Assembly: GCF_002854065.1 (NCBI RefSeq)
Contig: NZ_CP024147.1
Reading direction: 5' to 3' (one strand)
Source of the DNA: Escherichia coli
GTDB lineage: Bacteria > Pseudomonadota > Gammaproteobacteria > Enterobacterales > Enterobacteriaceae
Length of the DNA: 64,000 nt
A program made the position numbers. Numbering within the stretch: the first letter of the stretch is position 1; each line of letters begins with the position of its first letter. Positions 12,801 through 15,800 of the stretch are shown in pieces.

Positions 12801-15800
12801 GCAAATTTGCCGCCGTAAGCGCGATAGTTATTGGTGGCAACGAGGAACATGGCGTTCGGATCAATCGGCTTGCCGTTAAAGGTCAGGTTCTTAATCCTTT
12901 CCGCATTGGCATTAACCATCTGGCACTCGCCGTCATAACGGGCAGGCTGGGTAACATCAATCTGATAATTCACACCATCAATCACATCAAAGTTATAGGT
13001 GCGGAAACCATCCCAGTTGATGAGTGACTGTGGTTTCGTGTTGTCAGGATCAATCTGGTTAAACTGTCCGGCGGAGCACTCCAGCCACTCTTTCACCTCT
13101 TTACCGCTGGCTTTCACCACAATCAGCGTATTGGGGTAGAGATAAAGATCGGCGGCATTACGGAAGGTCAACTGGCCTTTTTCCACCTCCACATAGCTTG
13201 CCGGATCATTTTTGCGACCACCAACTTTAAACGGTGCAGCAGCTGAAAGCACCGGCAGTTTTGCCAGATCCGGATCGTCCTGAATGTAATGCTCGACATA
13301 CGCTTTTTGCGCGTTGTTCACCACCTGCACGGTCGGATCGTCCTGCACCAGCGCCAGATAGCTATACATATTGTCGGCGGATTTACCGATTGGCTTGCTG
13401 ACGAACTGGCGTGTGGCATCGTGATCGGCTTTGAGTGTTTCTACCAGCTTGCTGTCTTCCGCCGCGAGGGATTTTTTATTGGCGATGTCGTAAATCGGCC
13501 GTGCTTCCGCTTTCGCCTGCGTCACCTGCCATTTACCGCTGTTATTACTGAGTTGTAAGTCGACCACCCCAAGATGATCGCCCCACATGCCCGGCATTAC
13601 CGCCGGAACACCATTCAGCGTGCCTTTCGCGATATCAGCCCCTTCGATACGATATCAGCCCCTTCGATATCAGCAAAATCTTTACCTGGGAAAACGGCGT
13701 GAGCATGGCCAAACATAATGGCGTTAACGCCAGGAATTTCACTGAGGTAATAAACTGAGTTTTCCGCCATCACTTTATACGGATCGGCAGATAGCCCGGA
13801 ATGCGCCAGAACGACAACGACATCGGCACCTTTCTCGCGCATTTCAGGCACGTATTTGCGCACGGTTTCGGTAATATCATTCACCGTCACTTTTCCGGAT
13901 AAATTAGCTTTATCCCAGCCCATGATTTGCGGCGGCACGACGCCAATATAGCCAATCTTCAGCGTCTGTTTTTTTCCGTCTTTATCGACCACTTCGGTAT
14001 CTTTAATTAAATACGGTGTAAACATTGGCTGTTTGGTTCTGGCGTCAATGACGTTGGCATTTACATAAGGGAATTTCGCTCCCGCCAACGCATTTTTCAG
14101 GTAATCCAGACCGTAGTTAAATTCATGATTGCCGAGTGTACCGACCGTATAATCCAGCGTATTCAGCGCCTTATAAACCGGATGAACATCACCTGCTTTT
14201 AATCCTTTCGCCGATATGTAATCGGCCAGCGGACTCCCCTGAATCAAATCGCCGTTATCGACCAGTACGCTGTTTTTCACTTCATTGCGGGCATCGTTAA
14301 TCAGGCTTGCCGTACGTACCAGTCCGAATTTTTCCGTGGCGGTGTCTTTGTAATAATCGAAATCCATCATGTTGCTATGCAGATCAGTGGTTTCCATGAT
14401 ACGTAGATCGACCGTCGCTGCATTCACACTGGCGGCAATCAGCGTGGCCAGGAGCGTTGCGCTAAACTTAATCATCAGGGACATCCTTTTATCATCGGGA
14501 ATACGAAAGAAAAGGGAGAATAAACGCCTTACTTATAGAACAGTGAAGAATGCCACAATTTTACGCTTTGAAAATGATGACACTATCACAGTTGGCGCAT
14601 TCATTAACGATAGGGTATAAGTAAAACAATAAGTTAACACCGCTCACAGAGACGAGGTGGAGAAATGTTAGATCAAGTATGCCAGCTTGCACGGAATGCA
14701 GGCGATGCCATTATGCAGGTCTACGACGGGACGAAACCGATGGACGTCGTCAGCAAAGCGGACAATTCTCCGGTAACGGCAGCGGATATTGCCGCTCACA
14801 CCGTTATCATGGACGGTTTACGTACGCTGACACCGGAGATTCCGGTCCTTTCTGAAGAAGATCCTCCCGGTTGGGAAGTCCGTCAGCACTGGCAGCGTTA
14901 CTGGCTGGTGGACCCGCTGGATGGCACTAAAGAGTTTATTAAACGTAATGGCGAATTCACCGTTAACATTGCGCTCATTGACCATGGCAAACCGATTTTA
15001 GGTGTGGTGTATGCGCCGGTAATGAACGTAATGTACAGCGCGGCAGAAGGCAAGGCCTGGAAAGAAGAGTGCGGTGTGCGCAAGCAGATTCAGGTCCGCG
15101 ATGCGCGCCCGCCGCTGGTGGTTATCAGCCGTTCCCATGCAGATGCGGAGCTGAAAGAGTATCTGCAACAGCTTGGCGAACATCAGACCACGTCCATCGG
15201 CTCTTCGCTGAAATTCTGCCTGGTGGCGGAAGGGCAGGCGCAGCTGTACCCGCGCTTCGGACCAACGAATATTTGGGATACCGCCGCTGGTCATGCTGTG
15301 GCTGCAGCTGCCGGAGCGCACGTTCATGACTGGCAGGGTAAACCGCTGGATTACACTCCGCGCGAGTCGTTCCTGAATCCGGGATTCAGAGTGTCTATTT
15401 ATTAATTAATTTATGCAGCAGGTCCATCACTTGCTGCACCTCTTCCTGTGTGAGCGCCCCGTCTTTGGCCCATTGCACGCGACCATCCTTATCCAGCACC
15501 ACTACAGCGGAACTTTCTTCATCCAGCTGCCAGGCACCGCGCGCGACGCCATTGCTATCGACAATAAACTGCGACCAGGGATAAAGCTTTTTATTACTCT
15601 CCAGACTGCTGCGCACAAACATCCCTGAACCCGGAATCGCGTCGTCGGTGTTAACAATGGTGGTGGTCTGGTAGCGATCGTGCGGTAACTTCGCTGATTT
15701 AATCGCTTCAATCAGCGTCGCGTTTTTCTCTTTTGCAGAGGTGCGACCAGCAATATGTTGCAGTACTCGCACTTTTCCCACTAACTGTGCGCTGTTCCAG

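Follow-up and report, generated by a model that had tools for sequence, protein, structure and literature searches.

In the 64,000-nucleotide stretch of Escherichia coli DNA analyzed here (contig NZ_CP024147.1, referred to as the window), the genes cysQ and ytfJ run towards each other and share the last bases of their coding sequences. This arrangement raises the question of where the two transcripts end if the genes leave no DNA between them, and the further question of whether the window strain lost ytfI, the gene found between cysQ and ytfJ in K-12. In the explanation that we prefer, and that we regard as very probably correct as a whole, the overlapped junction is ancestral, K-12-like E. 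coli gained ytfI later, and the cysQ transcript would end at a stem-loop embedded in ytfJ.

The cysQ gene, coding for 3'(2'),5'-bisphosphate nucleotidase (246 aa), occupies positions 14665-15405 of the plus strand, from an ATG start to a TAA stop at 15403-15405. Facing it on the minus strand, ytfJ (15395-15952; 185 aa, ATG start) encodes an exported protein of the YtfJ_HI0045 family with no assigned function, and ends with a TAG at 15395-15397 that reads cta on the plus strand. Both genes were present in the ORF list and in the PGAP annotation. CysQ matched the Pfam family Inositol_P (PF00459) at 1.2e-51, and YtfJ matched the Pfam family YtfJ_HI0045 (PF09695) at 1.6e-77 and TIGR01626 at 1.7e-91. 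The 11 bp at 15395-15405 (CTATTTATTAA) are common to both CDSs and hold the last three codons and the stop of each gene, just as the initial annotation had given the overlap and its stops. Since the genes share 11 bp, it follows of logical necessity that at least 11 nt of the two mRNAs are complementary; of the antisense read-through between the two transcripts that had been proposed for this locus, this much is borne out.

The stops lie in an AT-rich environment. Positions 15391-15415 are 84% A+T, and the lineage-specific stretch TTATTAATTAATTTA (15399-15413), which occurs only once in the window, holds the perfect palindrome TTAATTAA (15402-15409). An AT-rich palindromic stretch at the stops, as described earlier, is therefore present. 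We discarded the palindrome as a candidate functional element, since only the window and one other locus (L006) have it and the stretch is not conserved beyond close Escherichia. At the corresponding position of the alignment, other lineages and genera carry GAGCAA or AAGCAG.

A YtfJ scan of one genome per species yielded 80 Enterobacteriaceae loci. The two stops overlapped in 74 of these, which cover more than a dozen genera. The overlap measured 11 bp in 39 loci (Escherichia, Citrobacter, Salmonella arizonae, Klebsiella, Raoultella, and Kosakonia), 7 bp in 29 loci (Enterobacter, Lelliottia, Pluralibacter, and others), and 4 bp in the 6 loci from Kluyvera, Trabulsiella, and Yokenella. S. enterica and E. 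fergusonii both have the 11-bp form. The protein lengths were constant over the 74 loci, even though the sequence of the overlap differs between the 11-, 7- and 4-bp classes. Judged from these alignments, the overlap is a conserved feature rather than a chance event.

The gene order in MG1655 is cysQ, ytfI (b4215, 312 aa), ytfJ, as the initial annotation had stated. Alignment of the window with K-12 (locus L001), which might have revealed the same direct junction in both, instead placed the BLAST break points at window position 15405 (L001 3496) and window position 15410 (L001 4722). In place of the 4 bases at 15406-15409 of the window, K-12 has a 1225-bp segment with ytfI (L001 3497-4721), and BLAST detected no remnant of this segment at the empty site. 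O157:H7 also carries ytfI. The frequency of the two states was determined with a 601-bp probe spanning the junction and 5426 complete E. coli genomes. The junction was uninterrupted in 3795 genomes (70%), and in most of the remaining ones, the probe was split exactly at the cysQ stop. The K-12 ytfI segment was present in 1623 genomes (about 30%), in 1604 of them at a coverage of at least 80%. Of the 5420 genomes that gave any match, 5418 had either the empty or the ytfI state. The species is polymorphic at this junction, and of the two states, the empty one makes up roughly 70% and the one with ytfI roughly 30%.

The ytfI segment has a GC content of 34.6% (36% for ytfI itself) versus 52-55% for cysQ and ytfJ. 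CysQ ends in ...FRVSIY in both the window and K-12. YtfJ has 185 aa and ends in ...HKLINK in the window, and has 184 aa and ends in ...MDLLQKLLK in K-12; the insertion of ytfI would have rebuilt the last ytfJ codons, leaving ...QKLLK in place of ...HKLINK. YtfI matched no family in Pfam or NCBIfam. A cluster search among 5.8 billion proteins returned 17 matching clusters, and those with a named source were all from Escherichia or Shigella. PADLOC reported a sub-threshold Cas6b for YtfI (E 8e-4, 17 bits, no passing stretch), which we treated as noise. The AlphaFold2 model, built on an alignment of 9 sequences (mean pLDDT 55, pTM 0.41), was too poor for a fold search. A repeat search of the K-12 segment found no terminal inverted repeats and no clean target-site duplication, so that an origin of the segment as a transposon or IS is unsupported. 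By eye, the right border of the segment loosely resembles the overlap sequence (8 of 11).

Where, then, do the transcripts end? Nine nucleotides past the cysQ stop, codons 172-180 of ytfJ contain a GC-rich stem-loop, TGCAGCAGG-TCCATCA-CTTGCTGCA (15414-15438), which can form on both strands. The folding energy was -14.6 kcal/mol on the plus strand (z -4.95) and -14.0 kcal/mol on the minus strand (z -3.5). For 73 junctions, RNAalifold predicted a single conserved structure. Its core in these 73 sequences is an invariant 8-bp stem, TGCAGCAG/CTGCTGCA, in which 15414-15421 pair with 15431-15438, and in most species, the stem can be extended to 10 bp. The stem is nearly invariant, and support from covariation is accordingly minimal: the one compensatory change, from G-C to A-U, affects a single pair in L004, L005, and L009, which are related Escherichia sequences, and the window is among the sequences with a G-U intermediate.

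Codon usage was compared in 81 ytfJ sequences. Among the Val, Gln, and Leu columns of the gene, the stem codons V172, Q173, Q174, L178, and L179 had the lowest synonymous entropy. A post hoc test, applied to these 81 phylogenetically related sequences, gave a probability of about 2.6e-5 for such a ranking by chance. CTG made up 94-99% of codons in the Leu columns of the stem, versus 31-83% in those other Leu columns that also use CTG most often. Free variation was observed at V175, in the loop, and at L182 and L183, further downstream. A strong preference for CTG and CAG codons, or another constraint at the nucleotide level, could add to the conservation of the stem. The matches listed in a protein search with YtfJ all had at least 81% identity.

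The initial annotation had stated that the overlap leaves no room for an intergenic terminator. There is indeed no intergenic DNA and no canonical terminator, but the statement overlooked the conserved stem-loop in the 3' coding end of ytfJ. A consensus terminator scan of the junction did not call the stem-loop at 15414-15438 and matched only a weak hairpin inside cysQ, and an Rfam scan of positions 14400-16400 gave no match at the junction. The hairpin matched by the terminator scan, CTGAATC-CGG-GATTCAG, is palindromic and lies in the last cysQ codons (15373-15389). It has a folding energy of -7.1 kcal/mol. In other genera, a different hairpin, CCCGG/CCGGG, forms 4 nt farther along; 85.8% of cells are paired in it. 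Since the hairpin is weak (z -1.4) and its register is not conserved, we did not accept it as the ytfJ terminator, and it is only a possible candidate for a structure at the ytfJ 3' end.

The stem-loop in ytfJ resembles an intrinsic (Rho-independent) terminator in its GC-rich stem of 8-10 bp, its loop of 5-7 nt, and its proximity to the cysQ stop. It differs in that no U-tract directly follows the stem on either strand, the tails being ACCUCUUCC (plus) and AUAAAUUAAUU (minus). The elements in the K-12 ytfI segment are more canonical, with hairpin-plus-U arrangements at L001 3499-3541 and 4647-4677. The stem-loop can also be compared with the bidirectional terminators of convergent E. coli gene pairs. 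These are described as unlike intrinsic terminators (bioRxiv 10.1101/2022.10.23.513370), and a stem-loop is needed to position head-on collisions of RNA polymerases. Like the bidirectional terminators of Ju et al. (2019), as cited in Wang et al. (bioRxiv 10.1101/2022.10.23.513370), the ytfJ stem-loop is palindromic, lies at a convergent boundary, lacks a U-tract, and can form in both transcripts. It differs from them in being located within the CDS of one partner (ytfJ) rather than in an intergenic spacer.

Insertions were found between cysQ and ytfJ in 6 of the 80 species loci, and the cargo differed among loci. It was a divergent ytfI (69% aa identity) in an atypical E. coli (L007), a gene for a 385-aa pentapeptide-repeat protein with 33% GC in E. 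albertii (L008), genes for a membrane protein and a radical-SAM/SPASM enzyme in C. youngae (L036), and a Peptidase_S11 homologue in two Kluyvera loci (L062 and L065). K. intermedia (L071) had a bare 71-bp spacer. The neighboring junctions were steadier in the same loci, with deviations in 0 of 78 cases for ytfJ-ytfK, in 2 of 77 for cysQ-cpdB (about 155 bp), and in 2 of 66 for ytfK-paeA. The cysQ/ytfJ junction is a modest hot spot for insertions, and such a hot spot is expected at a convergent junction free of promoters. Integrase and transposase genes were sought in the cargo of the junction insertions, and none were found in any of them. The junction does not have the marks of a mobile element or integrative islet, a direct repeat (about 35 bp) being present only in C. 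youngae.

In all six species loci with an insertion, a strong hairpin followed the cysQ stop at a distance of no more than about 15 nt. The C. youngae hairpin duplicates the ancestral ytfJ hairpin over about 35 bp, and the copies are located at the borders of the insertion. K. intermedia and Kluyvera have a similar hairpin after cysQ (GCAGCAG...CTGCTGC), and the Kluyvera insertions are flanked by hairpins with similar sequences. In K-12, the atypical E. coli (L007), and E. albertii, the hairpin after cysQ is new and unrelated to the ancestral one.

The conservation of the ytfJ stem-loop, the synonymous constraint on its codons, and the hairpins after cysQ in loci with insertions lead us to infer a role at the cysQ 3' end. 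The stem-loop may be an element for termination, pausing, or 3' stabilization of the cysQ transcript, and it may be bidirectional. Because the ancestral junction has no intergenic DNA, each transcript would end inside the opposing gene. The cysQ transcript would end, or RNA polymerase would pause, at the stem of 8-10 bp encoded by ytfJ codons 172-180. As the stem lacks a U-tract, it would act like a non-canonical bidirectional terminator or like a hairpin that stabilizes the 3' end, rather than like a classical intrinsic terminator. K-12-like E. coli would later have gained the AT-rich segment of 1.2 kb exactly at this point, receiving the orphan ytfI together with hairpin terminators of its own.

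We are more hesitant about a fuller version of this model, and put it forward tentatively. In this version, the ytfJ stem-loop serves as a termination or pausing element for cysQ, and possibly for both genes, and is kept in Enterobacteriaceae by selection on synonymous sites, and the junction is a recurrent landing site for unrelated single-gene cargo that has each time duplicated or brought a hairpin. If so, the stem-loop would be a bidirectional terminator embedded in a coding sequence, and the cargo of the landing site would comprise ytfI in E. coli, the pentapeptide-repeat protein in E. albertii, the radical-SAM pair in C. youngae, and the S11 peptidase in Kluyvera. Together with the stem-loop, the natural alleles with separated (ytfI present) and overlapped (ytfI absent) genes offer a ready pair for testing convergent termination without intergenic DNA.

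It is also conceivable that the overlap is regulatory. The complementary 3' ends could cause mutual repression of the two genes, by transcriptional interference or through RNase III, and the stem-loop could serve this repression, or be a site for a protein or a recombinase, instead of a termination element. The retention of the overlap in 74 species loci from more than a dozen genera and the unavoidable complementarity of the mRNAs over at least 11 nt would fit such a role. The hairpin copies that border the C. youngae insertion and the similar hairpins around the Kluyvera insertions would fit a recombination target as well. However, the approximately 30% of E. coli genomes, including K-12 and O157:H7, in which 1.2 kb separate the genes indicate that any coupling is dispensable, and CysQ and YtfJ are not known to be functionally linked. 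A recombinase site is also difficult to reconcile with cargo that contains neither integrase nor transposase genes, and with a K-12 segment that lacks terminal inverted repeats and a clean target duplication. We consider a regulatory overlap improbable, and prefer a role of the stem-loop at the cysQ 3' end.

The identical overlap in outgroups and the low-GC, orphan nature of ytfI indicate that the empty, overlapped junction is ancestral. The derived state is the one with ytfI, a foreign orphan gene inserted at the junction, and the window strain has lost nothing. It could be argued instead that ancestral E. coli had ytfI, and that a deletion in the window strain secondarily joined the ends of cysQ and ytfJ. 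Within E. coli, ytfI has a patchy distribution (30% of genomes), and K-12 and O157:H7 both carry the gene despite belonging to different phylogroups. Such a deletion would, however, have had to recreate the exact ancestral overlap of the reading frames, and to leave no trace of the 1225-bp segment. The empty-site allele was looked for in outgroups and found there, with the identical 11-bp overlap in S. enterica, E. fergusonii, Citrobacter, Klebsiella, and Raoultella. Members of the YtfJ family normally have 185 aa and end in ...KL[LI]xK, and ytfI, at 36% GC, has named matches from Escherichia and Shigella only. A secondary deletion is therefore very unlikely, and we retain the ancestral empty junction as our reading. 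The initial impression that ytfI is absent was correct for the gene itself; it was misleading insofar as it implied a loss. An expectation centered on K-12 has to be corrected, since it is the reference strain that is derived, and the absence of ytfI is the usual state, found in 70% of E. coli and in every outgroup locus examined.

The ytfI polymorphism at this junction has already been published, and the junction is ordinary. Higashi et al. (2016; PMC4720273, S10 Fig) described ytfI as an H-NS-bound, K-12-specific insertion between cysQ and ytfJ, and SE11 and SE15 as strains without it. Locus and polymorphism are the same as here, and the window has the SE11/SE15-type empty site. In that work, we found nothing on the 11-bp overlap, on how deeply the empty state is conserved, on the changed C-terminus of YtfJ, or on the embedded stem-loop. 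The present analysis adds little to the published content: the synonymous constraint on the embedded hairpin, and the finding that unrelated cargo has repeatedly occupied the junction.

That the overlap is an artefact of annotation or ORF calling, such that one protein would stop sooner and the shared bases would not be read in both frames, is hardly credible: the Pfam YtfJ domain does stop at residue 181 of 185, leaving the last residues outside the model, and 3'-end extensions inflate the counts of convergent overlaps in published surveys (PMC2478687), but the 3' ends are fixed by stop codons with no alternative in-frame stop upstream, both protein lengths are kept over the 74 loci despite the changing overlap, the TIGR01626 alignment covers residues 1-183 of the 185 in YtfJ, and CysQ, which shares its C-terminus with the K-12 protein, has matches that reach residue 246 in 75 of the 80 species loci. 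The overlapping coordinates of cysQ and ytfJ are identical in the PGAP annotation of BL21(DE3) and of strain 210221272, and PGAP annotated the cysQ CDS alike in genomes identical to the window. The coordinates are genuine, and annotation should leave both genes untrimmed.

The pair has the properties of a convergent overlap, with genuine genes of normal length on opposite strands, shared 3' bases, and conservation of the overlap. Convergent overlaps represent about 7% of the well-characterized overlaps in 338 genomes (Palleja et al., 2008, PMC2478687). Like the short convergent pairs in that survey, cysQ and ytfJ are two bona fide genes on opposite strands that share a few 3' bases. There is no categorical difference from such pairs; the cysQ/ytfJ overlap is unusually well conserved, and its length depends on the lineage.

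The DNA found at the cysQ/ytfJ junction differed between species. E. albertii NBRC 107761 (locus L008) carried, where K-12 has ytfI, a gene with 33% GC for a pentapeptide-repeat protein of 385 aa (4792-5949 of the locus). The protein matched PF00805 (7.6e-12) and weakly resembled PipB and PipB2, which are effectors of type III secretion.

A 2.1-kb insertion was present at the junction of Citrobacter youngae ATCC 29220 (L036 4559-6678), encoding a membrane protein of 298 aa, whose tail is rich in Cys and Gly, together with a radical-SAM/SPASM enzyme. The insertion was bordered by a direct duplication, of about 35 bp, of the ytfJ 3' hairpin region, which suggests that this DNA arrived with target duplication. 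In two Kluyvera loci, the junction contained a gene for a Peptidase_S11 protein (D-Ala-D-Ala carboxypeptidase-like; 4556-5460 in both L062 and L065). The K. intermedia junction held only a 71-bp spacer (L071 4556-4626), which contained a hairpin with a 13-bp stem, similar to the ytfJ stem-loop.

Upstream of cysQ, on the minus strand of the window, the 647-aa gene cpdB was interrupted. A perfect 20-bp tandem duplication (CGATATCAGCCCCTTCGATA, present twice, at window 13630-13669) shifted the reading frame and split cpdB into two ORFs of 289 aa (13615-14484, minus strand) and 361 aa (12512-13597, minus strand) in the ORF list. Comparison with K-12 and BL21(DE3) showed that the duplication was present in neither of these strains. 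At least 10 complete E. coli genomes gave one unbroken match to the window over 5 kb at about 100% identity. Among them was the swine genome NZ_CP016404.1, the only one checked for annotation, in which PGAP labelled cpdB as 'frameshifted'.

The divergent region between cpdB and cysQ contained a match to the ES239 sRNA (RF02756; window 14476-14598, plus strand; Rfam, 154.5 bits, E = 1.7e-31), which overlapped the start of cpdB and had cysQ immediately downstream. Two genomes, NZ_CP182139.1 (H71) and NZ_CP045190.1 (H83), carried an IS1 copy inside the part matching window 12000-17000, and apart from this copy they were 99.9-100% identical to the window.
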